From positions 407 to 64,406 of the forward strand of contig JAFXMZ010000025.1 of NCBI GenBank assembly GCA_017529925.1: 64,000 bases of DNA, read 5' to 3'. The notes under the pieces are model-generated. The model saw only the letters and a list, made by a program, of their open reading frames with translations. It made no database searches and was not told the origin of the DNA. Positions within the stretch are counted from its first letter, which is position 1. Each line of letters opens with the position of its first letter. The position numbers and the translations under genes were made by a program. The stretch comes from Clostridiales bacterium. Lineage in GTDB: Bacteria > Bacillota > Clostridia > Saccharofermentanales > Saccharofermentanaceae. Below are positions 1-61,990 of the stretch, piece after piece.

Positions 1-21
1 AGATGTAAGGAGGCGATGATC

Positions 22-954
22 ATGAAGATAATCAGTATGAATTGTCCAAATTGCGGAGCATCGATCAACACACAGACTGAATCATCAAGGATTTTTTGTT
101 CTGCGTGCGGAAGTCAGTTATCTGTCGAGGATGCTCAGACTGTCGGTTATGACATGGAGAAGGGAAGGATCAAGGCTAAGATCGATTCCAATAAAGATAC
201 GATCAGGATACTTGAACAGATTAAGATGCCACTGACTCATTATGATTCTCTCATCAAGGAGTTAGGTAGAGCAAAAAGTGATCTGAATCTATCCTTATCT
301 GAACAGCAGACAATGATAGCTAATTATGGTTCTGCGGGGGAAATAGCAAAGCCTTTCGGAATATCATTGGTCGTGGCTCTGTTAGCGTGCTGGATAGGGG
401 GAATCGTAGGTGCAATTATAAGTGCTGTGGCAGCATTAGTGATCGTAGTTGCAATGGGTAATGCTCAGAATCAGGCAAGGATACAGACAGCATGTCTTGT
501 TGAACAACGCACCAAAGATTGTATCAAGATCGAGGAAAAAGTAGCGGATACTGAACGGATTCTCAATGATAAGGAGAATAATAAAGTTGCAAGACAGATC
601 CCTGAGTCTATGAGAAATGAAAAATCCATAGATTATATGATACAAAAACTAAACAACCAGACTGTATACTCATTAGCCCAAGCTGTTGCTTTATGCAAAG
701 AGAAAAAAGAGAGGGAGAATTTCCTTTCTACTCAGCAGAAAATGATCGAACAGCAGAGAAGACAGCTGGATGAGATGAAGGCGCTTCAGGCTGCAAATGC
801 TCAGAACGGGAAGGTTATTAATGTGACAAACGTAACCTACAAGAAACCTGGGCTTGGTGGTATAGCAGCTAGGGCAGCGGCTGATACTGCGGGGCGATAT
901 GCCGGTTATAAGGCAGCCGACAAGATTTTCAACGAATTGAGAAAGAGGGTGTGA
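22..954 (+). CDS. zinc-ribbon membrane protein, function unknown
   Basis: ORF 16..954. The ATG at 22 lies 8 nt after AAGGAGG (7-13). N-terminal CPNCG-x17-CSACG ribbon, hydrophobic hairpin GISLVVALLACWIGGIVGAIISAVAALVIVVAMG, Q/E/K-rich coiled-coil-like C-terminal half. Confidence 0.75.
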   Translation: MKIISMNCPNCGASINTQTESSRIFCSACGSQLSVEDAQTVGYDMEKGRIKAKIDSNKDTIRILEQIKMPLTHYDSLIKELGRAKSDLNLSLSEQQTMIANYGSAGEIAKPFGISLVVALLACWIGGIVGAIISAVAALVIVVAMGNAQNQARIQTACLVEQRTKDCIKIEEKVADTERILNDKENNKVARQIPESMRNEKSIDYMIQKLNNQTVYSLAQAVALCKEKKERENFLSTQQKMIEQQRRQLDEMKALQAANAQNGKVINVTNVTYKKPGLGGIAARAAADTAGRYAGYKAADKIFNELRKRV

Positions 955-956
955 TC

Positions 957-1226
957 ATGAAACTCGAAAAAGGTAAATGCACATTCTGTGGCGGAGACGT
1001 ATTTCTTGATCCAAGTGTAAAGTCGAGTTTATGCAAAAACTGTGGTTCCGTAATAAAAACAGATGATGTCTTGAATCCACAGGAAGGAATCCAAACAAGA
1101 GATATTTCAACACTGTCTTTTGTGGAAAAGCTGAAGCTGTACTACAACGATATGAATTCTGTTAAAGGATGGTCGATTGCTGTCGGAGTAGTCATTGTGT
1201 TGTTTGTGATCATACACTACGTATAA
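957..1226 (+). CDS. small zinc-ribbon protein with C-terminal TM anchor
   Basis: ORF 951..1226 overlaps the upstream stop (GTGATCATGA). CTFCG-x17-CKNCG ribbon and C-terminal hydrophobic helix WSIAVGVVIVLFVIIHYV. Confidence 0.65.
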   Translation: MKLEKGKCTFCGGDVFLDPSVKSSLCKNCGSVIKTDDVLNPQEGIQTRDISTLSFVEKLKLYYNDMNSVKGWSIAVGVVIVLFVIIHYV

Positions 1227-1241
1227 TGAGGGGTAACTATA

Positions 1242-1574
1242 ATGAAGTTTTGTCCTAACTGTGGAAATAAGATAACTGGTAATCCGAGGTTCTGTTCTGA
1301 GTGTGGCTCGATTCTTGGGCATGATGAAGTAGAGTCAGATGATACGGATTATGAAGGGACTTATAGAAAGATGACCGAAGAGGATGAAGATGATGATTAT
1401 GTCCCATTCGGTGAAGCGGACCGTTACGATAGTACATCTGTAGACAGTTCATATCAGGATCAGGATTATACGGGATATTACAGTTCTCCTGCACCGGAAC
1501 CGCCTGTATCCCAGCCTCCGGTCATAGTCCAGGTTCAGGAAAAGAAAAAACAGCCGATGATAGATGGCATCTGA
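1242..1574 (+). CDS. zinc-ribbon protein with acidic disordered tail
   Basis: CPNCG-x9-CSECG at the N-terminus; the rest is D/E/Y/P-rich low complexity. Only a 15-nt gap to the upstream gene. Confidence 0.6.
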   Translation: MKFCPNCGNKITGNPRFCSECGSILGHDEVESDDTDYEGTYRKMTEEDEDDDYVPFGEADRYDSTSVDSSYQDQDYTGYYSSPAPEPPVSQPPVIVQVQEKKKQPMIDGI

Positions 1575-1585
1575 TAAAACAGACT

Positions 1586-1774
1586 GTGTATCTTCACAAG
1601 TATTATCCGGTCACGAATAAACTAATTGCTATAGAGAATCAGGGGGAGGGCGATTACTATTTGGTCGATGATGACGACAATGTCTTTGAATATGATTCTG
1701 AGATAGATGAGCTAATAAATTTACATATGAAGCTTAATGATTATATTGTATCTCGTTTTGAAAGTATTCGGTGA
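1586..1774 (+). CDS. small acidic protein; resembles the C-terminal third of SMI1/KNR4 (SUKH-type) immunity proteins
   Basis: 62-codon ORF with a GTG start and no clear RBS. The segment IAIENQGEGDYYLVDDDDNVFEYDSEIDEL looks like a SUKH C-terminal motif. May be a truncated remnant. Confidence 0.3.
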   Translation: MYLHKYYPVTNKLIAIENQGEGDYYLVDDDDNVFEYDSEIDELINLHMKLNDYIVSRFESIR

Positions 1775-1879
1775 TATGATTACTTAAAAAGCTAAATGGA
1801 ACAAAAAGAATTGCATTAACCTAAAGAGATAACAATATACCACTTACACTAACACCAGTTCAAAACAGAGTAGCCATTG

Positions 1880-1921
1880 TATCATTGTGATGATATAATG
1901 GCTATATCATTGCAATGATAT
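1880..1921 (+). promoter_or_regulatory. promoter -10 (TATAAT 1894-1899) flanked by two palindromic operators
   Basis: TATCAT-TGTG-ATGATA at 1880-1895 and ATATCAT-TGCA-ATGATAT at 1904-1921, directly upstream of RBS AGGAGAGG and the ATG at 1932. Confidence 0.6.
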
Positions 1922-1931
1922 AGGAGAGGTT

Positions 1932-2627
1932 ATGAAGAGGGTTTTGTACCATGGAAGTGATCATATTGTCGGGATGCCTTCGCTGACGATGGGGTCTCTT
2001 TCCAACGACTATGGCCGCGGATTCTATTGCACTGAAATAGAGTCGATGGCGTGCGAGTGGGCCTGTAAAAAACAGACGAACGGTTTTGTAAATCGGTATG
2101 AGCTGGGTGAAGAAGATCTCAGGATACTTGATCTGGCTGATGGTAACCATACGGTCCTGAACTGGATAGCCGTCCTTCTTAAGAACCGCTCATTTAAGCT
2201 GAACTCTCCAATTGCTCAGGATGCCCGCGATTATCTTGTAAAGAACTTCGGCATCGACACACATCGCTATGATCTTATCAAGGGATACCGTGCGGATGAT
2301 TCATACTTTCAATATGCAGAATCTTTTGTAAGCAACACACTGCCGCTTCGAAGTCTGAACCGTGCTCTGATGCTCGGGAAACTGGGGATGCAGACTGCAC
2401 TTGTGTCGAAGAAGGCTTTCGATAAGCTCAGCTTTATCGATGCATACCAGGCGGATGTGTCGACATGGTTTCCACGGTTTAATGACAGAGATACTGAAGC
2501 GAGAAAGGCATATAAAGACGAAGTGGCGAACAGCAGGACGTATAGAGATGATATCTATATGCTCGACATCTTAAGAGAGGGGATCAGGAACGATGACCCG
2601 CGCATACAACGAATTATACTTAAGTGA
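1932..2627 (+). CDS. DUF3990-like protein (possible ADP-ribosyltransferase-fold protein)
   Basis: The N-terminus VLYHGSDHIV...GRGFYCTEIESMA...KGYRADDSYFQY matches my recollection of the DUF3990 family. The HGS / GFY motifs resemble the H-Y motifs of PARP/DarT-type ARTs. Confidence 0.7.
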   Translation: MKRVLYHGSDHIVGMPSLTMGSLSNDYGRGFYCTEIESMACEWACKKQTNGFVNRYELGEEDLRILDLADGNHTVLNWIAVLLKNRSFKLNSPIAQDARDYLVKNFGIDTHRYDLIKGYRADDSYFQYAESFVSNTLPLRSLNRALMLGKLGMQTALVSKKAFDKLSFIDAYQADVSTWFPRFNDRDTEARKAYKDEVANSRTYRDDIYMLDILREGIRNDDPRIQRIILK

Positions 2628-3240
2628 TGCCAAGGATAACCTGGCGGATTATTTCGACTATCTGGTAAATGACTGCGGCTTTGACATTGATTGGGCCGCG
2701 ATGCTTTTCGAGGTGTCAGGGTATGCTTATATGTTTGAGAGCGGGAATCCTTATGTGCTGTCGGGGATGTCAGGAGTCGAGCTTGCCCGGGAGGTCGTAA
2801 AGAAGACATATCAGGGAAAGGAACTGCCGGAGCCGACATATCCCGAGGAGCTTTCGCCCGAGTACTGGGCGGGATGGGCGCTTGCGGAGTATCAGTGGTA
2901 CAGCGGGCGGCGGTTTAAGGATATCCTGGAGCATGTGAAGATGAATGAGATCCTTTCGATGTATAAGGTCTATCATGAAATGGATATCACCCAGTTCATC
3001 GACGAGATGGAGAGGCGGTGTTCGCAGAATAACGGTGAATCGCGGCTCAAGAAGCTGCGTGAGAACAGGGGATTGTCACAGTCTCAGCTCGCCGAAAGGT
3101 CGGGTGTCGGGCTGAGGTCGATACAGATGTATGAGCAGCGTGTCAATGATATAGATAAGGCTCAGGCGCAGACGATATATAAGCTGTCCAGGGCGATAGG
3201 GTGCAGGATGGAGGATCTGATGGAGGATCCGAGGGCGTGA
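2593..3240 (+). CDS. DUF3791-like N-terminal domain fused to a C-terminal XRE-family helix-turn-helix
   Basis: Overlaps the upstream gene by 35 nt. C-terminal LKKLRENRGLSQSQLAERSGVGLRSIQMYEQRVNDIDKAQAQTIYKLSRAIGC is a typical XRE HTH. Confidence 0.7.
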   Translation: MTRAYNELYLSDAKDNLADYFDYLVNDCGFDIDWAAMLFEVSGYAYMFESGNPYVLSGMSGVELAREVVKKTYQGKELPEPTYPEELSPEYWAGWALAEYQWYSGRRFKDILEHVKMNEILSMYKVYHEMDITQFIDEMERRCSQNNGESRLKKLRENRGLSQSQLAERSGVGLRSIQMYEQRVNDIDKAQAQTIYKLSRAIGCRMEDLMEDPRA

Positions 3241-3342
3241 ATTGATCAGAACTGTCTTCATCTACTATTCATTAATACTATTATCTCTGGAATACGTATT
3301 ATACGTGCTATAATGTGAGTAGTCATGTTAGTGGAGGCGTAG

Positions 3343-3387
3343 ATGAAGGTATCGGAGATGAAGAAACTTCTCAGACAAACAGGGTAA
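3343..3387 (+). pseudogene. hicA: hicA toxin remnant (14 codons, MKVSEMKKLLRQTG-stop)
   Basis: Not in the ORF track. Begins like HicA (MKxxExxKxLxxxGW) behind the TATAAT at 3309-3314, then stops 4 nt before the hicB ORF. Confidence 0.45.
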
Positions 3388-3400
3388 CGAGGTGGTAAAA

Positions 3401-3808
3401 ATGGGAAAGATCTCTATGTATGCATATCCGGCAATAATGACACCTGAGGATGAAGGCGGATACTATATTCATTTTCCTGATTTTGAAAACTGTTATACAT
3501 ATGGAAATGATATCCTTCACGGGTTGGTGATGGCAGAAGATGCACTGGCTCTGTTTCTTTATACGGAATATGAGGAGAAGGGGATCGAGCCGCCTGTTCG
3601 GACTGAGATCAAAGATATCAAGCTCAAGGCTGATGAGTTTGCTTCTTACGTAATCTGTGATACGAAGAGATACAGGAGACGGTTCGGGACTAAAGCTGTC
3701 AAGAAGACACTGACGATTCCTGAGTGGCTTAATGATGCTGCCATGGAGCAGAAGATCAACTTCTCTAAGGTGTTGCAGGAAGCGCTGATGGAAAAGCTCG
3801 AGGTGTAA
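3401..3808 (+). CDS. hicB: HicB-family antitoxin with C-terminal ribbon-helix-helix
   Basis: YAYPAIMTPEDEGGYYIHFPDFENCYTYGNDILHGLVMAEDALALFLY is a HicB N-domain. The C-terminal KKTLTIPEWLNDAAMEQKINFSKVLQEALMEKL is RHH-like. The ATG at 3401 follows GAGGTGG. Confidence 0.75.
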   Translation: MGKISMYAYPAIMTPEDEGGYYIHFPDFENCYTYGNDILHGLVMAEDALALFLYTEYEEKGIEPPVRTEIKDIKLKADEFASYVICDTKRYRRRFGTKAVKKTLTIPEWLNDAAMEQKINFSKVLQEALMEKLEV

Positions 3809-3846
3809 GTAACTGAGAGGAAAGTGTCTGCTGTATTTGGCAGAAT

Positions 3847-3875
3847 TAAAAAAGGCGGCCGGAGCCGCCTTTTGT
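3847..3875. terminator. bidirectional intrinsic terminator
   Basis: AAAAAAA-GGCGGC-CGGA-GCCGCC-TTTT between convergent genes. Confidence 0.7.
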
Positions 3876-3892
3876 TATGCCGTTATTATTCT

Positions 3893-5038
3893 TTAGTATC
3901 TGTCGCCGGTGCAGAAGTAGTTGCCGGTCGACAGGTCGGTTACGACGTAGACGTGGTCGTCGTTGTAGATCAGAAGATTATTGTACATCCTGAAGCCGTC
4001 GCCGTAGACCATGATAACGCGGGAGCTTCCGGTCGCGTAGTAGTCTTCGACCTGCTTGATCCTTGCGTCGATGTCGGACTTCATGCGGTTCACTTCTTCA
4101 GAATGTGCCTTCCCGAGGGGAGATTGTTCTTCGAAGAGGACGCTGTAGCCGCGGAGTTCATATTCGTCGACGTCATAGCCGTTGTTCCAGAGCTCATCGC
4201 CGAGGTGCTCGTTGACAGGTTTCTGAAGTGACTCGTGAACGAAGTGAGACTGGGTGACCCATTCGCTGTAGTCGCCATCGTCGTAGAGGTCGTCGAGGGC
4301 GTCTGTGACTTTGTTGAACTGCTTCATTTCGCAGTGGAAGAGCTTGTTAATGTCGCCGTACGGATAGGTGCTGATCTTACTGACTGAGTTGTCTTTCAGG
4401 GCGCGTTCGGAATGATCCATCAGATTGATGTATTCCTTGACTGCCGAGTCGATCCTTGCGGGGAAGACCGCGAAGACGAAGACAAGGAGAACTGCGGGTG
4501 CGATCATCGAAAGGAGACCGCCGATAACTGAGAGCTTTGTCTTTTTTCTGATGCAGAAGAAAAAGATGCCGAGGAGGGCGACAAAGCAGATGCCGGAGAT
4601 CGCTGTTGTTATCATGCTCTTGTCTCTGTGGTAGAACTCAGGGCATGCGATGAGGAAGACGACCGTTCCGATCACCGCGATGAGGCCGAAGATGAGCGGG
4701 AGGATCGACTTTTTCTTCTGCTTTCCGGAGGGAGCTGCAGGTGCGGCGTAAGCAGGAGCCGCAGGGTAGGCGGGTACTCCCGGAACAGCAGGTGTGACAG
4801 GTGCTGTGGGCGCAGGGACTGCCGGTGCGACCGGAGCTTCAGGCACAGGAGCGACCGGTGCTGCGGGCGCTGTTGCTGTAGAAGCTGCGGGTGCGGGAAC
4901 TGCCGCGGGTGCTTCCGCTGCCACCTCAGCCTTCGCCTCGGCCGCATTCGGTATCTCCATGGTTATAACAGGTGTTCCGCAATAGGTGCAGAACTTTATT
5001 CCGTCGGGAATCTGCTTTCCGCAGTTGCAGCAATACAT
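3893..5038 (-). CDS. zinc-ribbon membrane protein with Pro/Ala-rich linker and extracytoplasmic domain
   Basis: CCNCG-x9-CTYCG at the N-terminus, about 90 aa of A/P/V low complexity, three hydrophobic helices, then a 190-aa C-terminal domain. Confidence 0.75.
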   Translation of the reverse strand: MYCCNCGKQIPDGIKFCTYCGTPVITMEIPNAAEAKAEVAAEAPAAVPAPAASTATAPAAPVAPVPEAPVAPAVPAPTAPVTPAVPGVPAYPAAPAYAAPAAPSGKQKKKSILPLIFGLIAVIGTVVFLIACPEFYHRDKSMITTAISGICFVALLGIFFFCIRKKTKLSVIGGLLSMIAPAVLLVFVFAVFPARIDSAVKEYINLMDHSERALKDNSVSKISTYPYGDINKLFHCEMKQFNKVTDALDDLYDDGDYSEWVTQSHFVHESLQKPVNEHLGDELWNNGYDVDEYELRGYSVLFEEQSPLGKAHSEEVNRMKSDIDARIKQVEDYYATGSSRVIMVYGDGFRMYNNLLIYNDDHVYVVTDLSTGNYFCTGDRY

Positions 5039-5253
5039 ATCATTATCCCCCTCTTTTATGAGTCGGCGTCTGTGCGCCTTTAACGACTACAATTATAATC
5101 TTTGTGAGGTTTTCTTCCAAGTGCAGGGGGAGCCTTTTGTTAATCTGTTAAAAACGATGCCGCGCCGCAGGACGATGAGTGCCCCTGTATGCTAAAATAT
5201 GTTTTATATAGGCTTTTCGAAATGCTCAGGCATCAGTAGAGGGAACAGACATT

Positions 5254-7968
5254 ATGAAGAAGATAACAGCTCTGATATTAAGCGCCGTGATGGCGGCAGG
5301 GATCGCGGGAGCAGTACCCGCTGTGGCAGCAGATACGACCGACGTCCTTACAGTCTTTGAGACGGAGGCGACTTCGACGACATACGTCGACTGGACTTTC
5401 GACGAAACGGAATCCGGCGCGGTCTACAGCGGCAACTCCGCCAGGAGCAGCACATATGCCATCCAGATGAGGAGTAAGAACAACAATTCAGGTATCGTTA
5501 CGACAACTTCGGGCGGATATGCTTCGAAGGTCGAGGTCGAGTGGGATGAGTCGGCAACGACGGGTACCATCTATGTCTACGGAAAGTCGTCCGCCTATTC
5601 TGCGGCATCGGATCTTTACCAGGAATCGACGCGCGGCACTCTGATCGGCAGCATTGCATGCGGGACTGATACCGAGCTCGAGATAGAAGACAGTTATGAA
5701 TATATCGGTCTCAGGTCGGCCAGCGGCGCGATCTACCTTCAGTCCGTGAGCATCACGTGGGGTGACGGATCGTCGGTGCCTGTGGAGAAGTGCAGTGTCA
5801 CTTTCGATGCGGGCGGAGGAACAGGCAGTATGAAGTCTGTCTCCGTCTCGAAAAACGCAGACTACACACTTCCTGAATGTTCGTTTGCGGCACCGTCGGG
5901 TATGCGTTTCGCCGGGTGGCAGGTGCCGGGCGGCGCGGTCAGGATGCCGGGTCAGGTGATCACTGTTACGGCCGACACGACTCTGACTGCCGTGTGGGCT
6001 CAGAAGACCTCCGGACCTGAGTTCACCGATAATATCGATGTGGAACTCCTCGGCGTCGGGGGCTCGTACGATGTCTGGTCCGGCAAGGTGTCCAGCAGCA
6101 ACGCGGTCTATGCAGGCAAGGCCATGAAGGGCAAGAATGCGATCCAGCTCAACGGCAGGAACGATATCGGCATCGTGACTACGTCTTCGGGCGGCAGCGC
6201 GCGCAGGATCGAGTTCTTCTGGAATGCCGACTGCACGGCGGGCACCACGGTAAATATCTACGGCAAGGATACGCCATATGAGAGCGCCGCAGATCTTTAT
6301 TACACCTCGAAAAGCGGCACCCCCGTCGCCAGTACGCTCTCTTCCTCAGGATCGTCTTCAGTCGTCGTCCTGGACGGTGATGTCCCGTATATCGGCATTA
6401 AGCCCTCCAATGCGGTCTATATCGACGAGATCAGGATCACATGGGAGTCCGACGACCCGGATCAGGAGACATACACTGTGACCCTTGCACCCGGAGACGG
6501 ACAGGGGGAGAAGACCACGGTGAAGGTCGTTGCTGGGCACTCCTTTAAGCTTCCCGCATGCAGTTTCACGGCGCCGGAGGGGATGCTTTTCGACGGGTGG
6601 AAACAGAAGGGGACAACGGATGTCTGCGCAGCCGGGACTCATGTACCGGTCATTGGAAATACAACATATATCGCTTCGTATGTCCGGGCGAAAGATCAGT
6701 TCCCCAGCATGCCGTCAGGCAGCAGCTCGTATTCGACGGTCAACGTGAATACTTTTTCGGATATGCCGCACGGGACGGTTGCCTACAGGGTGATAAAGCG
6801 TGGAACGAACGGTTATGCCATAAAGATGGATGCGGAGGACCTGAACAGGTTTTCTTTCGGACAGCTCAATTCTTCGGATCTGGACGAGATCATAATATGC
6901 CTGCCGCAGGGTTATACGCTCTCGGGGAATACGGGCATCATCCATTCTTCGGACGGGCCTTACAGGCTCACTGATTACAACGGGATAAATACTCCCTTGA
7001 AGATCGTGGACACCGTGATCGATACCGACTACGATCCGCGCGATACATCGCTCGCATGCGGTTACCGTGTATGCTTCGGAGGGAAGAACGATATCAGCGC
7101 CGTCTATAATGCCGGCAGCAGGGTCGAAGGAATGTCTCTGAGCCTCGGAGGCGATATCGGAGTCCGTCTCTATATGACATTGAGCGATGCGGCTGTAGCG
7201 AGCAACAATGCCTATATGGAATTCACGCTCCCCGACGGAAGCAGGTCTACGGTCAATGTAGGAGAGGCAGAGCGCGACGGCGACTATTATGTCTTTAAGT
7301 GTCATGTGAAGGCGAGTGAGATGACGCAGGTCATCGAGGCGAGGATGGTCGTTGACGGTCATCCCGGAGAAGCCTACAGTTTTACGGTGCGTGATTACGC
7401 GGAATATATCCTCGAGCACACCGAAAAGCCTGAGTATGCCAAGGCGGAGCCGCTCGTCAGGGCAATGCTCAACTACGGGGCATATGCACAGGAGTATTTC
7501 AAGGTGCCGGGCATGAGGGCTGACTGGAATTATGAGGATGAGACGATGGGGCATATTTCATATGACGATATCGATATAGATGATTATACTGACCCTTCTG
7601 ATCTTCCGGACGATGTAAGATTTACATATGCATCGCTGTCCCTGAAGTCAGAGACGACGCTGTCACTATACTTCGATTCCGAGGAGGAACTGGGATTCAG
7701 ATCTTTTGGTGGAAAGACCGTCGATGTATCGCATGAGGGGAATCATTATGTTGCCCGCATACGGGGCATACGTGCCGATGAACTCGGCGATACATTTAAT
7801 CTTACGATATCCAACCCGAACGGGAACATAGGTGTCAGGTACAGCCCGATGAACTACTGCTACAATGTACTGAAGTCGGATTCGACTTCCATTACTCACA
7901 AGTATGTTATCGAGGCATTGTACAAGTATTATCAGGCGGCAGCTGCGTATACAGGGAAAGAGCCGTGA
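5254..7968 (+). CDS. secreted multidomain surface protein (two N-terminal repeats, each followed by a Listeria-Bacteroides-type repeat; shared C-terminal module)
   Basis: Signal peptide MKKITALILSAVMAAGIAGAVPAVAA. Two VTFDAGGGTG...FAGWQ / YTVTLAPGDGQG...FDGWK repeats. The C-terminal roughly 300 aa is homologous to the C-termini of 53661..55997 and 8644..9051. Confidence 0.85.
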   Translation: MKKITALILSAVMAAGIAGAVPAVAADTTDVLTVFETEATSTTYVDWTFDETESGAVYSGNSARSSTYAIQMRSKNNNSGIVTTTSGGYASKVEVEWDESATTGTIYVYGKSSAYSAASDLYQESTRGTLIGSIACGTDTELEIEDSYEYIGLRSASGAIYLQSVSITWGDGSSVPVEKCSVTFDAGGGTGSMKSVSVSKNADYTLPECSFAAPSGMRFAGWQVPGGAVRMPGQVITVTADTTLTAVWAQKTSGPEFTDNIDVELLGVGGSYDVWSGKVSSSNAVYAGKAMKGKNAIQLNGRNDIGIVTTSSGGSARRIEFFWNADCTAGTTVNIYGKDTPYESAADLYYTSKSGTPVASTLSSSGSSSVVVLDGDVPYIGIKPSNAVYIDEIRITWESDDPDQETYTVTLAPGDGQGEKTTVKVVAGHSFKLPACSFTAPEGMLFDGWKQKGTTDVCAAGTHVPVIGNTTYIASYVRAKDQFPSMPSGSSSYSTVNVNTFSDMPHGTVAYRVIKRGTNGYAIKMDAEDLNRFSFGQLNSSDLDEIIICLPQGYTLSGNTGIIHSSDGPYRLTDYNGINTPLKIVDTVIDTDYDPRDTSLACGYRVCFGGKNDISAVYNAGSRVEGMSLSLGGDIGVRLYMTLSDAAVASNNAYMEFTLPDGSRSTVNVGEAERDGDYYVFKCHVKASEMTQVIEARMVVDGHPGEAYSFTVRDYAEYILEHTEKPEYAKAEPLVRAMLNYGAYAQEYFKVPGMRADWNYEDETMGHISYDDIDIDDYTDPSDLPDDVRFTYASLSLKSETTLSLYFDSEEELGFRSFGGKTVDVSHEGNHYVARIRGIRADELGDTFNLTISNPNGNIGVRYSPMNYCYNVLKSDSTSITHKYVIEALYKYYQAAAAYTGKEP

Positions 7969-8141
7969 TCCGGACGCCCCGAGATGTTCGGGCCCGCCTG
8001 TTTACGCAGGCAGTCGCGCATAAAGGGAAAGCGTGATATACTATTGCACGGTCGGCAGGATGGTCATCTGCCGTCAGGGTACTGCCGTAAGGAGTAAGCC
8101 TTGTTCGGATTTGGATCGATCAGATAAGTGCCGGCGGCCGA

Positions 8142-8217
8142 CGAGGTGTAGCGCAGTTGGTAGCGTACGTGCTTTGGGAGCATGGGGTCGCAGGTTCGAA
8201 TCCTGTCACCTCGACCA
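8142..8217 (+). tRNA. tRNA-Pro (anticodon UGG), CCA encoded
   Basis: Acceptor CGAGGTG/CACCTCG, D-arm TAGCGCAGTTGGTAGCG, anticodon loop CTTTGGGAG, T-arm GGTTCGAATCC, 3' ACCA. Confidence 0.9.
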
Positions 8218-8224
8218 GAAGAAA

Positions 8225-8257
8225 AGCCCGCAGTAATTGGGACTGCGGGCTCTTTTG
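8225..8257 (+). terminator. intrinsic terminator after tRNA-Pro
   Basis: AGCCCGCAGT-AATTGGG-ACTGCGGGCT followed by CTTTTG. Confidence 0.75.
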
Positions 8258-8335
8258 TTAAGCTATCATGCGTCAGAAGACGATGTAAAAAGACGCGGTG
8301 AGTACGCGGCTTGGTGCAGGTTGATCCAGGACCGA

Positions 8336-8531
8336 CCTGTACCAAACCGTGTTTTTAGAGAAAATAGTACGTGAAATCGATGGTTTACACGTACCAAATG
8401 TTCTTAATTCGGATGTTTAGTACAGGAAATCTGAGTTTTCCTGTACTAAATGCAAAAATTAGGAAGAAAAGTACAGGAAAACAGCTGTTTTCCTGTACCA
8501 AACATGTGTTTTTCAGCAAAAAAGTACAGGA
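8336..8531. repeat. hairpin-repeat array 1 (52-bp period, GTAC-word stems)
   Basis: Hairpins start at 8367, 8419, 8471 and 8523 (last one partial). Examples: AGTACAGGAAA-TCTGAG-TTTCCTGTACT and the 28-nt perfect palindrome GTACAGGAAAACAGCTGTTTTCCTGTAC. Spacers such as AAACATGTGTTTTTCAG. Confidence 0.8.
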
Positions 8532-8643
8532 GTCCGATCGGGACAATCGCTACGGTCGGATGTGTTCATTTGTCCATTCACGAAACTCCCGGCTTCAGGA
8601 ACCCGATCATGACAGTCGTGACCGGGCTTAACCCGGTGAACGG

Positions 8644-9051
8644 TTACTGCGCATCATTGTAAGCGATGGCTGCCTCGTAGTAGAAGTAGAGTGCTTTGAC
8701 GAGATCCTTGAGGTCTTCGTTGGAACTCGTCTCGAGGATCTTCCCGCAGTAGTCGAAAGCACTGTACGTGATGGTTTTCGAATAGGAATGATCATTACTT
8801 ACGACCGTTAAGGTGTATGGATCGCTGAGGCGCAGGAGCCTGACGGGGATCCTGATCCTTGTGAGACCGTCATCAGAAGGTGCACTATCGTAGCCGTAAA
8901 TACTGTAGTCGTCAGCGATATCCGGATAGAACTTGAGATAAGGCGTTTCCTTCAGGACGAAGCCGCGGAGACCGGTGCGGGGATGAGCCCTGCCGCCATT
9001 ACTGCCGAAAGCAAAACGGAGATCATCTTTTTCTTTTCCATAGTTCATCAC
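8644..9051 (-). CDS. C-terminal-module-only paralog of the surface proteins (likely gene remnant)
   Basis: The 135-aa ORF ends ...TLTVVSNDHSYSKTITYSAFDYCGKILETSSNEDLKDLVKALYFYYEAAIAY, which aligns with the last roughly 100 aa of the 904-aa and 778-aa proteins. No signal peptide. Confidence 0.5.
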   Translation of the reverse strand: MMNYGKEKDDLRFAFGSNGGRAHPRTGLRGFVLKETPYLKFYPDIADDYSIYGYDSAPSDDGLTRIRIPVRLLRLSDPYTLTVVSNDHSYSKTITYSAFDYCGKILETSSNEDLKDLVKALYFYYEAAIAYNDAQ

Positions 9052-9208
9052 CTCATATCTCAGGATAGAAACATCCCGGCGACGCCTCTGCTAACAGGTT
9101 GTGCCGGGATGGATATTTCTTCATATTCGTGTCTCGACCGGACGGATCCGGCTGTATAAAACTGTCATGGGACTGCTCATCCGTCAGTCGACCGGGGAGA
9201 GGATCTCC

Positions 9209-9328
9209 TTAAGGACGGATCTTCCCTATCTCGTCTTCCTCTGTCTCCTCGAATGTCGAATCCGTGATTATATCCGAATTACCGAGGAGGATTATCTCAA
9301 TCTCGATATCTTCATACTTTTCTTTCAT
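9209..9328 (-). CDS. small acidic peptide (39 aa), paralog of 53545..53643
   Basis: Not in the ORF track. MKEKYEDIEIEIILLGNSDIITDSTFEETEEDEIGKIRP, with SD AGAGAGG 7 nt upstream. Shares MKE-Y-E-EIE-I-G-DIIT-S with the second copy. Confidence 0.5.
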   Translation of the reverse strand: MKEKYEDIEIEIILLGNSDIITDSTFEETEEDEIGKIRP

Positions 9329-9640
9329 ATTCGTACCTCTCTAATTACGTCTGCTCTTACTATTCTATCACAGATATCAATGGATTTCCGCTATTTTATG
9401 TTCTGTATTCGATCGCGTTCTGTCCGGCGCTGGGTGCCCGAATCTGTACGGGGTACTCAAATCGGCGGAGGATGCCCGAACACGATTTGTATTATATAAT
9501 GTGAGTGTAGTCAGTTCGATCACCGGGTGTGGCCGGTGAGGCAGCGGCCGGCGAGCAGATGGATGAAGTTGGCGCGGCGGGGGAAGAGTTCCCCACACAC
9601 TGATCGGGAACGATGCCGCGGCCGGCGGGGAGGTTTTCTT

Positions 9641-10090
9641 ATGGCGATGAAATTCAAATATGTCAGGATCCAGGGCGCGGAGCTCGCCGAGAATACGATG
9701 TATGCCAAGGGGATCTTTTCGATGTGTGTCCAGCTGGTGCAGAACAACGTGATGGACGCTGAGGACGCCGAGCTCTTCCACGAGATCGACGACTGGTTTG
9801 CGCACGAGCTGCCGTGGCCCGAGCCTTGCCGCCGCCGCGAGAAGGTCGTCTGTTTCTTCAAGACCGAGAATGCCGACGAGATGATGCGCTACATCCGCCC
9901 CATGATGTGGCTGCTCGAAAAGTACGACCACCCCTATTACGTCGTCTACACCAATTCCCCCGGCGAGATCGTGTACGAGGACGAGTACCAGGTCGCCGTA
10001 AAGGTGCCCGGGACGCTTCAGATCGAAAAGATGCAGGATTCCTGGTCGGAGGGGCTGAAGCTCAACGACAAGGGAGTTGTCGAAGACTGA
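9641..10090 (+). CDS. hypothetical cytoplasmic protein (149 aa)
   Basis: The ATG at 9641 follows GGGGAGG. ORF 9527..10090 is probably N-extended. No recognisable domain. Confidence 0.6.
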   Translation: MAMKFKYVRIQGAELAENTMYAKGIFSMCVQLVQNNVMDAEDAELFHEIDDWFAHELPWPEPCRRREKVVCFFKTENADEMMRYIRPMMWLLEKYDHPYYVVYTNSPGEIVYEDEYQVAVKVPGTLQIEKMQDSWSEGLKLNDKGVVED

Positions 10091-11828
10091 CCTCCGCCTG
10101 CCGGTCCGGTACGGGCCGCGACTGTTTTTTGTTCAGTCTGTAGAGCGAGGCCGTGAGGCTGTGGTTTTCGTTGCAGTTGTAGGGCAGGTTATAGCGCCCG
10201 ATCAGCTCGGCTTCGTATGACGAAGGATCCGCGGGGATCAGCTCGCTCATCCAGCCGTCCTCATAAAGATCTTCGTTGATGAAGACATAGACATTGATCC
10301 TTCCCCCCTCGAAAATGTCATTCCCGCGTATCACAGTATTGCCGTCAGCCTCGAAGACCGACAGGTCATTGAGGACTGTGTAAGTGCGGTCAGTCACGAG
10401 GTGATCCGCCTCCGGGATAAGGTACGAAGTGATGCCGAGATCCCACTCGTTGACATGGACGAAGAGCGGGGGCAGGGAAGTGCCGGGATCGTAGATGTCG
10501 CTGTAGGACGGAAGAACGTGATATGAAGCGTCGAAGTCTTTCCTGAAACGGTCGAGTTCGCCCGCGGGCGACTTCCTGTCCACTCCGGTAAAACCTGTAA
10601 TGATGTTGACCGCGCAGACGGCGGTGCACAGAAGAGAGATCATATTTTTCCTGTCGCATGAGGTTATCGCCGCCGCCCACAGGAGAGCCGCTGCACCCGA
10701 GTAGATGAAGAAATATCTTCCGGCGTAGAGGTCCGCGACGTATGTTGCGGCGATGAATCCGGCAAGCGAACCGGCGAAGAGGACGGCGAGCGTTCGGGCG
10801 CCGCGGTATGATTCCACCGCGCGTTCTTTGCGTCCGGGATCGACCGCATCTTTGATGCGCTTTGCGTCGCGGAGCTTCGAGGGGGATATCAAAAGGAGCG
10901 GCGCCAGCAGTGCCGAAAGCACCACGGTCATGACGGCGATGACCGACATGGCCGTTCCCGAGCCGTTCTCGAAGCAGCCGATGAATGCGTAATAGACCGA
11001 GCTGATGACATTGCCTTCCGAGACCCAGTAGCCGTCCTTTACGGCGCCGAGCTGTCCGAGGAGAACGAAGAGCCACGGCAGATAGAGGACCGATACGATG
11101 ACGCCGCTTACAAGGAGTGCGCGCAGGCGCGGGAAGTCGCGCTTGATGAGAGCGGCCACCGCCAGCGCACCGTAAGAGCAGAATGCGATTATGAGCGAAG
11201 TGTTATGTGTATACATCGACAGCAGGCCATAGACAGTCATCAGGATGAGGTCGCGCTTTTCGCCGTGATCATAAAAGAGCGAGGCGTGGATCAGAAAAGC
11301 CGTCGACAGCGCGAAAGCGAGCACCGCCGGCCTGACCGTGTGCCCGAAATAGATCGTATAGCGCGAGCAAAGGACGAAGACTGCGGCGAGCACTGACGCG
11401 CGCGGTCCGAGCAGGCGCCGGCCGGGGAAGAGTATCACAGCAAAGAGAAATGCATAGATGACGACGGTGACCGCCCTCAGCGAAAAGAGGCTTCCGCCGG
11501 TGATGACCGACACGGCCTTCAGCAGATATGTGTAGAGCGGCGGGCTGTAATCGCTCCGCAGAAGCTGCATGAGCCCGCTCCATGAATGCCTGTTCAGGAA
11601 GTACTGGTAAGCGCTGTCATAGGAGATGCCGTCATGGGTCTCGAAGAGTGCCCACATCACAAGGAATGCGGCCGTGAAGAGGAGCCACAGGATGGCGGTC
11701 TTCAGCGTCCCGATACCGCCGGAGCGTGTACCGGAAGTGAGTGCCCGGCCGCCGCCGGAATAAACATCTGAAGTGAGCGTTCCGCCGCTGCCGGAACTGA
11801 CTTCGCCGGAGGTTTTTCTTGTCGTCAT
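10062..11828 (-). CDS. GT-C fold glycosyltransferase (PMT/ArnT-like, family 39/83-like) integral membrane protein
   Basis: More than 10 hydrophobic helices. The N-terminal loop YDSAYQYFLNRHSWSGLMQLLRSDYSPPLYTYLLK is typical of PMT_2-type enzymes. Start taken at MTTRK (11828); the ORF extends to 11912. Confidence 0.65.
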   Translation of the reverse strand: MTTRKTSGEVSSGSGGTLTSDVYSGGGRALTSGTRSGGIGTLKTAILWLLFTAAFLVMWALFETHDGISYDSAYQYFLNRHSWSGLMQLLRSDYSPPLYTYLLKAVSVITGGSLFSLRAVTVVIYAFLFAVILFPGRRLLGPRASVLAAVFVLCSRYTIYFGHTVRPAVLAFALSTAFLIHASLFYDHGEKRDLILMTVYGLLSMYTHNTSLIIAFCSYGALAVAALIKRDFPRLRALLVSGVIVSVLYLPWLFVLLGQLGAVKDGYWVSEGNVISSVYYAFIGCFENGSGTAMSVIAVMTVVLSALLAPLLLISPSKLRDAKRIKDAVDPGRKERAVESYRGARTLAVLFAGSLAGFIAATYVADLYAGRYFFIYSGAAALLWAAAITSCDRKNMISLLCTAVCAVNIITGFTGVDRKSPAGELDRFRKDFDASYHVLPSYSDIYDPGTSLPPLFVHVNEWDLGITSYLIPEADHLVTDRTYTVLNDLSVFEADGNTVIRGNDIFEGGRINVYVFINEDLYEDGWMSELIPADPSSYEAELIGRYNLPYNCNENHSLTASLYRLNKKQSRPVPDRQAEVSLRQLPCR

Positions 11829-11953
11829 TGCCACGCAGTCCTTATTTGATACAATAATGATGTCATACGCGCAAAAAGGTGTCAAATGAGCGCGGGTCCC
11901 GGCGCACGCCACGCGGCGCGTGACGACGCGTGATGAAAGGAATGGAGGACAGG

Positions 11954-12568
11954 ATGGGTATATTTGAAAACTGGAAGGATCTGTTTACGCTCGAATTCTG
12001 GCAGAACCTGCTGGAGAGCTACAAGACGTTCGGCCCCGTTGCGCCGATAGCGCTCGCATTCCTTGAAGCGATCTTTCCGCCGCTGCCGATGGTGGCGATC
12101 GTGCTCGCGAACGTGGCCGCTTACGGCGTTAAGCTCGGATTCCTCTACAGCTGGATCGGCTCGTGCCTCGGCTGCACCTTCGTCTTTTTCCTCTTCCGGC
12201 TGCTGTTCAGACCGCTTTTCGCGTGGATGGGAAAGAAGAGCCGCAAGATAGATCACGCGCGCCGCTGGGTCAAGGGCGTCTCCGTGCCGACACTCTTCAT
12301 CCTGATAACGCTGCCGTTCACGCCGTCGTCCTTCGTCAACTTCGCGTTCGGCGTTTCCGACTACTCGGCGCCCAAGTACCTTATCACGCTCTATCTGGCC
12401 AAGACCGTCATGCTCGCGCTCCTCGCCTTCGTCGGCGAAAGCGTCGTTCTCTCCTTCAAACAGCCGTGGATGATCGCGGTCTCCGTCGCGGTCCTGGTCC
12501 TGTCATACATCATCTCGAAAAAGATCACATCCTCAAAGATCGCCGACGACGCCGGGAAGGAAGAATAA
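11954..12568 (+). CDS. VTT-domain (TVP38/TMEM64, DedA-related) membrane protein
   Basis: FGPVAPIALAFLEAIFPPLPMVAIVLANVAAYGVKLGFLYSWIGSCLG. The ATG at 11954 lies 5 nt after GGAGG. Confidence 0.7.
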   Translation: MGIFENWKDLFTLEFWQNLLESYKTFGPVAPIALAFLEAIFPPLPMVAIVLANVAAYGVKLGFLYSWIGSCLGCTFVFFLFRLLFRPLFAWMGKKSRKIDHARRWVKGVSVPTLFILITLPFTPSSFVNFAFGVSDYSAPKYLITLYLAKTVMLALLAFVGESVVLSFKQPWMIAVSVAVLVLSYIISKKITSSKIADDAGKEE

Positions 12569-40530: not shown

Positions 40531-40544
40531 ACTCTTTACAGGCG

Positions 40545-40830
40545 TTGAAGGGAAAAAAGATACGTCAATGCGCATACAGAGAGCCGGCGGTCGCTGCGAG
40601 CCGGTTGCGGCAGATGTAATGATAAGTCATCCCGGAGCTGTCGGATCCAAAGGGCTTTGTCCCGAGTAGAGCCGGTCGGGTCCTCCCGTTACAGAGGAGC
40701 GTGTTGAATGACACGGTCGAGAGGGCCGCATGACGGCCAAGAAGAGTGGTACCGCGGGATAAGTTTTCTCGTCTCTTTCACATCAGGAATATTTCCTTTT
40801 GTGGCGGAGACTTTTTTATTGCTCGAAGCC
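40545..40830 (+). promoter_or_regulatory. T-box riboswitch leader (tRNA-sensing transcription attenuator)
   Basis: AGAGAG bulge at 40578-40583. T-box core AAGAGTGGTACCGCGG at 40742-40757. Downstream GTCTC...GAGAC hairpin plus TTTTTT at 40824-40829. Confidence 0.85.
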
Positions 40831-61639: not shown

Positions 61640-61805
61640 CCGCCTTTATAAAGTATTCGCAGCGGGATCCCTGTACGGAGAGGATATGTACAGACCGGCT
61701 GAAGATTCAGTTCCGGCATCCCTTCGTTGGCATTATCCAAATCAGGTCAATGGGTCGAAGGTCATACCTTCCTCTCAGCCTGTAATACAAGCTCCCCGCT
61801 GTGTT
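61640..61805 (-). promoter_or_regulatory. TPP (THI-box) riboswitch
   Basis: The reverse complement of 61719-61799 reads GCGGGGAGC...CTGAGAGG...ACCC...GACCTGATTTGGATAATGCCAACGAAGGGA. Confidence 0.9.
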
Positions 61806-61990
61806 GTAAGTAACATAATAATGGACTTATAACATCGAAAATGCAAGCATTTTGAAAATAATCACAATTCAGGGGCAAAATCCTAAAAGAATTGTGTCAT
61901 TTTTGATATAGTACACGGCCCTGTCTTTGTGCTAATATAGAATACAAATTTTCGAAAAGCCTATTTATATTAATTAAGGGGGTTTATCAC

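Follow-up and report, generated by a model that had tools for sequence, protein, structure and literature searches.

Near one end of a 64,000-nucleotide stretch of the genome of a Clostridiales bacterium (GenBank assembly GCA_017529925.1, contig JAFXMZ010000025.1, positions 407 to 64,406 of the forward strand; this whole stretch is referred to here as the window), two overlapping open reading frames (ORFs), ORF1 and ORF2, lie behind a promoter that is overlaid by palindromes. The question raised by this locus was whether the two genes form a toxin–antidote module and, if so, to which known systems that module is related. A reading of the sequence made without database searches (the sequence-only reading) had taken ORF1 for a DUF3990-like protein with ADP-ribosyltransferase (ART) motifs, ORF2 for a DUF3791-like protein joined to a helix-turn-helix (HTH) domain, and the pair for a DarTG-like system. 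The analyses described here indicated that the core of this idea is right, that the labels DUF3791-like and DarTG-like do not hold, and that the module is real, conserved and coherent. Judged from profile matches, the pair is a DUF3990 member that fits the PADLOC candidate system PDC-M42 with an added HTH domain and belongs to a catalogued but uncharacterised family. Probably, with some room for doubt, the two genes function as a toxin–antidote cassette that represses its own expression and belongs to the type II toxin–antitoxin or abortive-infection kind.

Conservation of the gene pair

Relatives were collected by a scan of one genome per species, in which at least 592 were found, and the best 80 were taken as genome loci. 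These 80 came from Oscillospiraceae, Lachnospiraceae, Erysipelotrichaceae, Negativicutes, Coriobacteriia, Treponema and Kiritimatiellae. Genome loci bearing the pair spanned Bacillota, Actinomycetota, Spirochaetota and Kiritimatiellae, with six phyla represented in all. An ORF2-type gene was located directly 3' of ORF1 in 77 of the 80 species-level loci. The remaining three were loci at contig ends in which ORF2 was not found and which were hence unscorable; named with them was L040, a locus with a broken ORF1. The same pair was detected on 27 IMG/VR viral contigs, often close to the contig ends.

The arrangement of the two genes was equally constant. The ORF1 stop codon lay 20 to 68 nt past the ORF2 start, in a constant relative frame, in 105 of the 106 genome and viral loci, and 35 nt was the commonest length of overlap (58 loci). 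This is also the overlap of the window, where all of the coordinates that the sequence-only reading had given for the two ORFs and their shared 35 nt (2593-2627) were correct. Read in the frame of ORF1, the overlap encodes ...DDPRIQRIILK and the stop codon; read in that of ORF2, it encodes MTRAYNELYLS. Relatives have preserved both of these peptides. A Shine-Dalgarno (SD)-like GAGGAG was present inside ORF1, about 10 nt before the ORF2 ATG, in 103 of the 106 loci. Conservation of the overlap, of both overlap peptides and of the internal SD-like motif therefore suggested translational coupling.

A great number of genomes from gut and rumen keep the pair, at 62 to 69% identity, and its distribution is patchy and cross-phylum, with copies on plasmids, on viral contigs and beside integrase genes. 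A small, co-directional, coupled gene pair and a patchy distribution on mobile elements, both of which are marks of type II toxin–antitoxin systems, were seen. Overall, the pair is a mobile cassette that is widespread among bacteria of the gut and rumen and among their phages.

Operators and probable autorepression

A promoter scan of the window placed a sigma-70-like promoter at positions 1871 to 1899 (TAGCCA-17-TATAAT, with TG ahead of the -10). Two palindromes overlie it (Table 1). The first, O1, is a 34-bp palindrome in which the repeat finder recognised 15-nt arms at 1871-1885 and 1890-1904 that are 93% complementary; the second, O2, spans the predicted transcription start and the 5' untranslated region and abuts the ribosome-binding site (RBS). 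O1 and O2 also form an 18-nt direct repeat, 25 bp apart, in the output of the same program. Palindromes bracketing TATAAT had been noticed in the sequence-only reading and were recovered, both of them larger (34 bp for O1 and 22 bp for O2) than had been stated. When up to one mismatch was allowed, three matches to the 16-bp core TATCATNNNNATGATA were present in the 64-kb window, compared to an expectation of 0.22, and none of 100 shuffles reached three. No exact operator copies other than O1 and O2 were found in the window.

The two arms of the near-perfect O1 palindrome, TAGCCATTGTATCAT and ATGATATAATGGCTA, stand in the place of the consensus -35 hexamer of relatives, most of which have TTGACA at the position of TAGCCA in the upstream alignment. 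With a consensus TTGACA replaced by the O1 palindrome, the window may have a weaker promoter or a larger operator than relatives do.

A common upstream plan was apparent in relatives and consisted of TTGACA, a palindrome running through the spacer into TATAAT, a second related palindrome, GGAGG and ATG, with GGAGG at the corresponding place upstream of ORF1 in the upstream alignment. This plan was quantified with a scan for 6-N4-6 palindromes; a generic finder with 7-nt arms was dropped as too noisy. Under strict rules, such a palindrome was located in the spacer/-10 region of a -35/-10 promoter in 55 of 81 upstream regions, and 41 of these 55 had a related second palindrome 21 to 40 bp downstream. 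The modes of this spacing, 27 and 37 bp, are one helical turn apart.

The half-sites vary between lineages, match between O1 and O2 of one locus and follow the recognition helix of the HTH domain. In the class to which the window belongs, helix R-S/N-I-Q-M is found with operator TATCAT-N4-ATGATA. Helix R-M-I/V-Q-L goes with TATCGT-N4-ACGATA, R-Q-I-Q-L with half-sites TATCGC or TATCTC (right arm GCGATA), N-T-I-R-A with TAATAC-N4-GTATTA, R/K-T-x-Q-Q with TACT(T/C)C-N4-G(A/G)AGTA, and K-S-I-Q-A with T(A/C)CCAT-N4-ATGG(T/G)A. Mutual information between helix and half-site was 1.92 bits, compared to permuted values that averaged 0.66 and peaked at 0.96 (0 of 10,000 permutations reached the observed value), in a test that ignores shared ancestry. 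Because the half-site changes together with the recognition helix, it is well supported that ORF2 would bind O1 and O2 and thereby repress its own promoter. The layout, with the HTH protein encoded second, had been interpreted as autorepression before any relatives were compared, and the covariation of operator and recognition helix gave this interpretation strong, if indirect, support.

ORF1 and its predicted fold

The match of ORF1 to Pfam DUF3990 (PF13151) covered profile positions 3-152 of 152 and scored 137.6 bits (cut-off 32.2, E 3.4e-40), in line with the family to which it had first been likened. A full-length match to PADLOC PDC-M42A (E 4.3e-42) and weaker matches to PDC-M13 and PDC-M10 were also obtained. 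DUF3990 was the sole Pfam match; DarT and RES families were not found at E<=0.01, and searches of NCBIfam and PHROG returned no family. The Pfam ART clan includes DUF3990 (PMC7955679), a grouping that the sequence-only reading had also given.

Fold searches were performed with an AlphaFold2 model of ORF1 (predicted local distance difference test [pLDDT] score 75, predicted template modelling score 0.71), in which the order of strands and helices was as expected for an ART core. The top match in BFVD was an unnamed 202-aa protein (E 2e-7), and the next were PolyVal ADP-ribosyltransferases and polyvalent or ejection proteins (probability 0.99, E 4e-4 to 3e-3), followed by giant-virus PARPs. The PDB list, which contained no match at E 1e-3, was led by the ART domains of PARP1, PARP2, PARP4 and PARP12, with probabilities of up to 0.97 and template modelling (TM) scores of ~0.3, and also included a cyanophage pre-ejectosome protein. 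Modelling and fold searching had been suggested as a check on ORF1, and the matches were ART domains. A Treponema relative of ORF1 exhibited a weak sequence match to ART-PolyVal.

DUF3990 proteins were observed in a long form, which has a C-terminal extension and goes with ORF2-type partners, and a short form. Residues invariant across both forms include H7, G8, S9, Y32, W43, W78, R86 and Q154. The motifs H7-G8-S9 and G30-F31-Y32, invariant in long and short proteins alike, are the expected NAD-binding His and Tyr motifs, and an hhalign comparison of DUF3990 (long and short) with a hand-entered sequence of the PARP1 catalytic domain aligned LYHGS with LWH862GS and GFY with GIY896 (E 1e-3, probability 20%). 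The resemblance of these motifs to those of PARP, which had been remarked on from ORF1 alone, was thus found again at H862-G-S and G-I-Y896 and in the family as a whole. Q154 is in a predicted strand (153-157) that by strand order, without superposition, takes the position of the PARP catalytic Glu, suggesting an H-Y-Q arrangement for DUF3990. PARP-type enzymes without the catalytic Glu still mono-ADP-ribosylate, and the predicted transferase activity of ORF1 is therefore plausible.

Decay of the pair and the probable identity of the toxin

DUF3990 forms the variable C-terminal (toxin) tip of type VI secretion system Rhs effectors in Serratia and Enterobacter (PMC4524185, PMC10763514, PMC12165300). 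The pattern of decay among relatives was examined for both partners. ORF1 was broken and ORF2 intact in 4 of ~106 loci: ORF1 has a premature TAG in L040, is split by an insertion sequence-like insertion of ~2.7 kb in the viral contig L125 (3921-6641, with three ORFs of about 142, 126 and 546 aa), has lost residues 1-41 in L126 and is reduced to residues 113-229 in L129. In a further locus, L074, the start codon of ORF1 reads ATA and an in-frame TGA shortens the protein by 4 residues only. No locus among the ~106 had an intact ORF1 beside a broken ORF2. An asymmetry of this kind, although the numbers are small, would be expected of a toxin–antidote pair, and we infer that ORF1 is the growth-arresting component.

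An apparent stop codon within ORF1 of L039 (and also L038), from an uncultured 'Bacillales' metagenome-assembled genome, was of another kind. It is a TGA codon, at position 5115 of L039, that aligns with the invariant Trp43 of ORF1, so the host probably reads TGA as Trp (genetic code 4). L039 was rejected as an ORF1 pseudogene on this ground and left out of the decay count. The alignment suggests that the module has probably spread into code-4 lineages.

Domains of ORF2

The presence of an HTH domain in ORF2 was confirmed by a Pfam search (HTH_3, 42 bits against a cut-off of 23, E 1e-10) and the domain was assigned to the Xre type. Its solved relatives were Xre, SinR, 434 Cro, HipB and HigA, and weak matches to models and structures of MqsA, HipB and HigA were detected. 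With the profile of the ORF2 family, the solved relatives were HTH proteins only.

For the N-terminal domain (N-domain), no Pfam family was found even at E<=10. Macro, ARH and other hydrolase families were absent from ORF2 and from 40 diverse relatives, and the Pfam search of ORF2 yielded no DUF2384. Residues 3-133 gave a weak match to PADLOC PDC-M42B (E 1.2e-4, 129 of 138 profile positions). The AlphaFold2 model of ORF2 consisted entirely of helices; it was of low confidence (pLDDT 56) because the alignment was shallow (effective number of sequences ~1.5) and was not used for a fold search. The family of this domain comprises at least 1220 clusters at 50% identity, with HTH-fused members of ~210 aa and standalone members of ~145 aa. 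One standalone protein, encoded 3' of a DUF3990 gene on pTS1 of Treponema saccharophilum, aligned with the ORF2 N-domain at an hhalign probability of 94%. Near- or fully invariant polar residues among ~40 diverse members were E129, H128, D131, E63 and Q101.

A 281-aa protein, P0387, combines part of a DUF3990 domain (profile positions 20-114) with an N-domain of the ORF2 type. It arose either naturally, by fusion or deletion, or as an artefact of assembly.

The proposed assignment of the N-domain to DUF3791 failed in every comparison. PF12668, against which genuine DUF3791 proteins score E 1e-15 to 1e-20, gave no match at E<=10 to ORF2 and matched none of 40 relatives. Profile–profile alignment of DUF3791 (comparison alignment of 37 to 120 sequences) with the N-domain, whole or in halves, gave hhalign probabilities of 0.7-2.9%, and it follows that the window carries a partner family other than DUF3791. 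A test for an internal repeat in the N-domain was negative, a by-eye similarity between YHEMD..F and YEMLHTQGKEY was not borne out, and a DUF3791 profile search of solved structures had no meaningful match.

Genuine DUF3791/DUF3990 modules were present on plasmids of Clostridium tetani, C. botulinum, Segatella and Bacteroides. The two families co-occur on these plasmids in an architecture that differs from that of the window. The plasmid modules share with the window the DUF3990 domain with its invariant H, Y and Q, small overlapping genes and mobile replicons, one of them by ParA. They differ in that the DUF3791 gene (~75 aa; 147 aa in Bacteroides) is upstream of a short, 161-aa DUF3990 without the C-terminal extension and that no HTH is fused to the partner. 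A third small ORF follows the short DUF3990 in 3 of 4 loci. Small ORFs in this 3' position at L086 (2985-3212) and L089 (2474-2749) had faint DUF3791 matches (E 0.02-0.03), and the short DUF3990 may be flanked by two distant DUF3791-like proteins.

Table 1. Positions of the promoter, operator and coding features of the module in the window
Feature	Position	Strand	Remarks
-35-like hexamer TAGCCA	1871-1876	+	17 nt 5' of the -10; promoter scan
Operator O1	1871-1904	.	core TATCAT-tgtg-ATGATA at 1880-1895; spans promoter spacer and -10
Extended -10 TGaTATAAT	1891-1899	+	TG 1891-1892, TATAAT 1894-1899; first bases are the O1 right half-site
Operator O2	1902-1923	.	perfect 22-bp palindrome CTATATCATTG/CAATGATATAG; includes ATATCAT-tgca-ATGATAT at 1904-1921
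RBS of ORF1, AGGAGAGG	1922-1929	+	read from the sequence; precedes ATG
ORF1	1932-2627	+	231 aa; predicted toxin
ORF1 DUF3990 domain, predicted ART fold	residues 5-168		Pfam PF13151; invariant H7-G8-S9, Y32, Q154
ORF1 helical C-terminal extension	residues ~175-231		only in long forms paired with ORF2-type partners
SD-like AGAGAGGGGA	2574-2583	+	within ORF1, ~10 nt 5' of the ORF2 ATG
ORF1/ORF2 dual-coding overlap	2593-2627	+	35 nt
ORF2	2593-3240	+	215 aa
ORF2 N-terminal domain	2593-3027	+	residues 1-145; homologous to standalone DUF3990 partners of ~142 aa; motifs SPEYWaGW, Y-H-E-M-D; predicted toxin-neutralising domain
ORF2 Xre/Cro-type HTH	3046-3219	+	residues 152-209; HTH_3 PF01381
ORF2 recognition helix GLRSIQMYEQ	3109-3138	+	about residues 173-182

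Proposed mechanism and alternative explanations

In the mechanism proposed for a toxin–antidote cassette, a single promoter, TAGCCA-17-TGaTATAAT, would drive ORF1 and ORF2. ORF1 would use NAD+, either by mono-ADP-ribosylating an essential target or by consuming NAD+. ORF2 would be translated from an internal RBS in the last ORF1 codons, leading to co-production of both proteins in a fixed ratio. Its N-domain would bind and neutralise ORF1, perhaps via the C-terminal helical extension of that protein, and its Xre HTH, as a dimer on the two operators over the -10 and the transcription start, would repress the operon.

The analysis showed the gene anatomy, the conservation of the pair, of its overlap and of the promoter/operator layout, the operator–helix covariation, the family assignment and the resemblance of a medium-confidence model to ART folds; DNA binding, toxicity, neutralisation by protein contact, the chemistry and any anti-phage role are predictions. 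Several observations weigh against this interpretation. The Gln at the catalytic place, itself set by secondary-structure order, may signify that the transferase is weak, altered or inactive. The PDB fold matches of ORF1 are weak (best PARP E 0.02, TM ~0.3), sequence-profile searches of solved structures with ORF1 and with the DUF3990 profile gave no meaningful match, and the PARP1 alignment, at only 20% probability, used a sequence entered by hand. ORF1 is without a PHROG family. The ORF2 model is poor (pLDDT 56), and the N-domain may merely bind ORF1 or may itself be an enzyme. The permutation test of covariation does not take account of shared ancestry, and the decay asymmetry rests on 4 cases, or ~5 with the start-codon change of L074. 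The islet that holds the pair in the window is flanked by housekeeping genes (carB-type genes, a GH3 glycosidase, an alanine symporter and prfC). Finally, PADLOC PDC-M42 is an unpublished computational candidate (PMC11811056), and a literature search on PDC-M42, PDC-M13, PDC-M10, PF13151 and DUF3791 found no functional study, in agreement with the sequence-only reading, whose author knew of no experimental characterisation.

A dedicated anti-phage abortive infection role was regarded as a tentative possibility. Autorepression would keep the complex at a low level, infection would free the ART-fold effector and the infected cell would stop; this explanation overlaps that of a toxin–antidote cassette and differs only in biological role. 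Both proteins match PDC-M42, ORF1 additionally matches PDC-M13 and PDC-M10, and PDC-M13, a related candidate, is one of the predicted systems found most abundantly in the genomes of rumen microbes (PMC13356809). Relatives adjoin integrase, DNA methylase/HNH, UvrD-PDDEXK, RES, ToxN and HEPN genes, and the 27 viral contigs often carry the pair near their ends, like prophage accessory genes. However, the PDC-x entries are unpublished candidate defence systems (PMC11811056), the literature contained neither a mention of PDC-M42 nor a test of PDC-M13 or PDC-M10, the pair has housekeeping surroundings in the window and in Collinsella, and no trigger or sensor domain was recognisable.

A bolder proposal combines an active H-Y-Q DUF3990 enzyme that would act on an unusual target, such as nucleic acid in the manner of DarT or CmdT, with an ORF2 N-domain that would be a new kind of antidote, either a new ADP-ribosyl-hydrolase fold using Y-H-E-M-D or a sensor of phage infection that releases the toxin. 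This combination was considered doubtful.

It is unlikely that ORF1 is no toxin at all and instead binds NAD or ADP-ribose, as an enzyme or pseudo-enzyme without lethal effect, and cooperates with the ORF2 repressor or modifies it in a small regulatory or phage-lysogeny accessory circuit. The invariant Gln154 in place of Glu at the inferred catalytic place would then be a sign that transferase activity has been lost. Gut and rumen genomes keep the pair stably, at the identity given above, and some copies lie among housekeeping genes. These observations have to be set against the use of DUF3990 as an Rhs toxin tip, the patchy cross-phylum distribution on mobile elements and the restriction of the operator in the window to the promoter of the pair itself. 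ORF1 was never found without ORF2 (the 3 contig-end loci being unscorable), whereas ORF2 survives beside a broken ORF1, and Gln for Glu need not abolish activity, since PARP-type enzymes that lack the Glu remain capable of mono-ADP-ribosylation.

Least probable of all is an enzymatic antidote with the logic of DarTG, in which the ORF2 N-domain would not simply sequester ORF1 but reverse the modification introduced by it, and would be a new hydrolase fold with an active site formed by Y-H-E-M-D and SPEYWaGW: the gene order is that of darT-darG, the polar residues E129, H128, D131, E63 and Q101 are conserved and the N-domain also occurs standalone without the HTH, but no Macro, ARH or other hydrolase match and no solved relative beyond the HTH were found, the model is all-helical and of low confidence, and a tight interface between two proteins would be just as likely to conserve aromatic and acidic residues.

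Relationship to known systems

As a probable self-repressed toxin–antidote cassette, the pair was compared with systems of known or predicted function. Both components of PADLOC PDC-M42, A and B, are matched by the adjacent ORF1 and ORF2, and the plain A+B form is found at Treponema pTS1. The window differs in the fusion of the B-type domain to an Xre HTH and in a promoter with two cognate operators.

The layout appears most like that of MqsRA or HigBA. In these systems, the toxin gene comes first and the antitoxin has an N-terminal toxin-binding part and a C-terminal Xre-type HTH that acts on two promoter palindromes. In contrast to ORF1, their toxins are RNases of unrelated folds, and the ORF2 N-domain is unrelated to the zinc domain of MqsA.

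The predicted chemistry, by analogy, most resembles that of DarTG and RES-Xre/ParST. As in DarTG, a gene of the ART superfamily comes first and the antidote second, and the module is mobile and defence associated. This part of the DarTG-like label, the gene order, stood; the remainder did not, as ORF1 had no DarT match and ORF2, predicted (in a low-confidence model) to be all-helical, had no macrodomain, and because ORF2 is without a macrodomain the term can be used only loosely. DarG is not known to carry an HTH, nor is the DarTG promoter known to have a pair of operators like that of the window. The toxin of RES–Xre/ParST is an NAD+-using member of the ART clan, and the autoregulating antitoxin consists of an Xre HTH and a toxin-binding domain. 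Neither RES nor DUF2384 was matched by ORF1 or ORF2, and the orders of genes and of domains are reversed in the pair, with the toxin first and the HTH C-terminal. RES, like DUF3990, is listed in the Pfam ART clan (PMC7955679). As DarT, Macro, RES and DUF2384 features were searched for and not found, the pair is not a member of DarTG or RES–Xre/ParST.

Two further groups of proteins resemble ORF1 itself. ART-PolyVal and PARP domains are the best fold matches of its model, and the H-G-S and G-x-Y motifs align; the differences are a TM of 0.3-0.4, the Gln in ORF1 for the catalytic Glu and the small standalone form with a partner, rather than a giant injected protein. The Rhs DUF3990 tips (Serratia Rhs5 and Enterobacter RhsA) have the same Pfam domain at the toxic position with an immunity gene downstream (PMC4524185, PMC10763514) but pass from cell to cell by secretion, within a large Rhs protein.

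Genomic context

The module is clearly mobile and is often found among conflict genes. In one setting outside the window, the pair comes right after two integrase genes, near DNA methylase, HNH and UvrD-PDDEXK genes and before a gene for a RES-domain protein. In another, it occupies a variable hot spot, where it is preceded by a gene for an RdRP-domain protein, an IS1595 transposase or other genes. In Collinsella, the pair lies between yihA and thrB. DUF3990 modules of other architecture were located by ToxN and HEPN genes (Treponema pTS1) and by ParA, ORF6N and Fic genes (Bacteroides pBUN1). The RdRP-domain neighbour, seen just 5' of the pair in some Oscillospiraceae (L093, 316-3357; L096, 276-3317), is a 1013-aa protein with the eukaryote-type RNA-dependent RNA polymerase domain PF05183, an unusual occupant of this hot spot; sister contigs have the IS1595 transposase or other genes in its stead.

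In the window, the pair is part of a stretch of ~3.9 kb with a GC content of 39-49% (positions 1-3900), compared to 50-59% beyond it (4000-12000), and the low GC content suggests a horizontally acquired islet. The surroundings had been described as a conflict-system island with a hicB remnant; they proved instead to be this islet among housekeeping genes, with an intact hicB-like gene beside a truncated hicA. The hicA remnant (3343-3387), which adjoins ORF2, encodes MKVSEMKKLLRQTG followed by a stop codon and looks like the first 14 codons of the gene. The hicB-like gene (3392-3808; HicB_lk_antitox 28.1 bits, phrog_497 E 2.5e-32) is preceded by its own TGcTATAAT at 3306-3314. These two genes are a further example of a toxin gene that has decayed next to an antitoxin gene that is retained.

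Other genes of the region were also recorded. A 62-aa ORF at 1586-1774 matched the C-terminal third only of the SUKH_5 profile, below the cut-off (E 0.0015), and is probably a fragment. Zinc-ribbon proteins of 312, 91 and 110 aa (+ strand, 16-1574) and 381 aa (- strand, 3893-5038) are encoded around the module and have an N-terminal ribbon and predicted membrane or low-complexity segments. Just past the islet, at 5254-7968, is a gene for a secreted-looking protein of 904 aa with internal repeats and no Pfam match on record, and a tRNA-Pro(TGG) gene (8142-8217) is located ~4 kb downstream. A T-box leader (40536-40779, + strand, 108 bits) and a thiamine pyrophosphate riboswitch (61702-61808, - strand, 64.7 bits), both above the Rfam gathering threshold, are unrelated to the module.

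Significance

DUF3990 is a large family of the ART clan, with thousands of homologues in gut and rumen metagenomes, and is listed only as a computational defence candidate. Each of the ADP-ribosylating systems DarTG, ParST/RES-Xre and CmdTAC brought new chemistry and new targets. The locus described here is tractable: the putative enzyme has 231 aa and three residues to mutate, and neutralisation and repression by its partner are predicted to reside in separable domains. The natural swaps of specificity between half-site and recognition helix predict which residue reads which base. If an active H-Y-Q enzyme were indeed paired with a new antidote, the module would be among the most abundant unrecognised abortive-infection systems of gut and rumen Bacillota and their prophages. 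Confirmation of toxicity and chemistry would provide a function for two uncharacterised families and turn a listed candidate into a real system; otherwise, the candidate would come off the lists.

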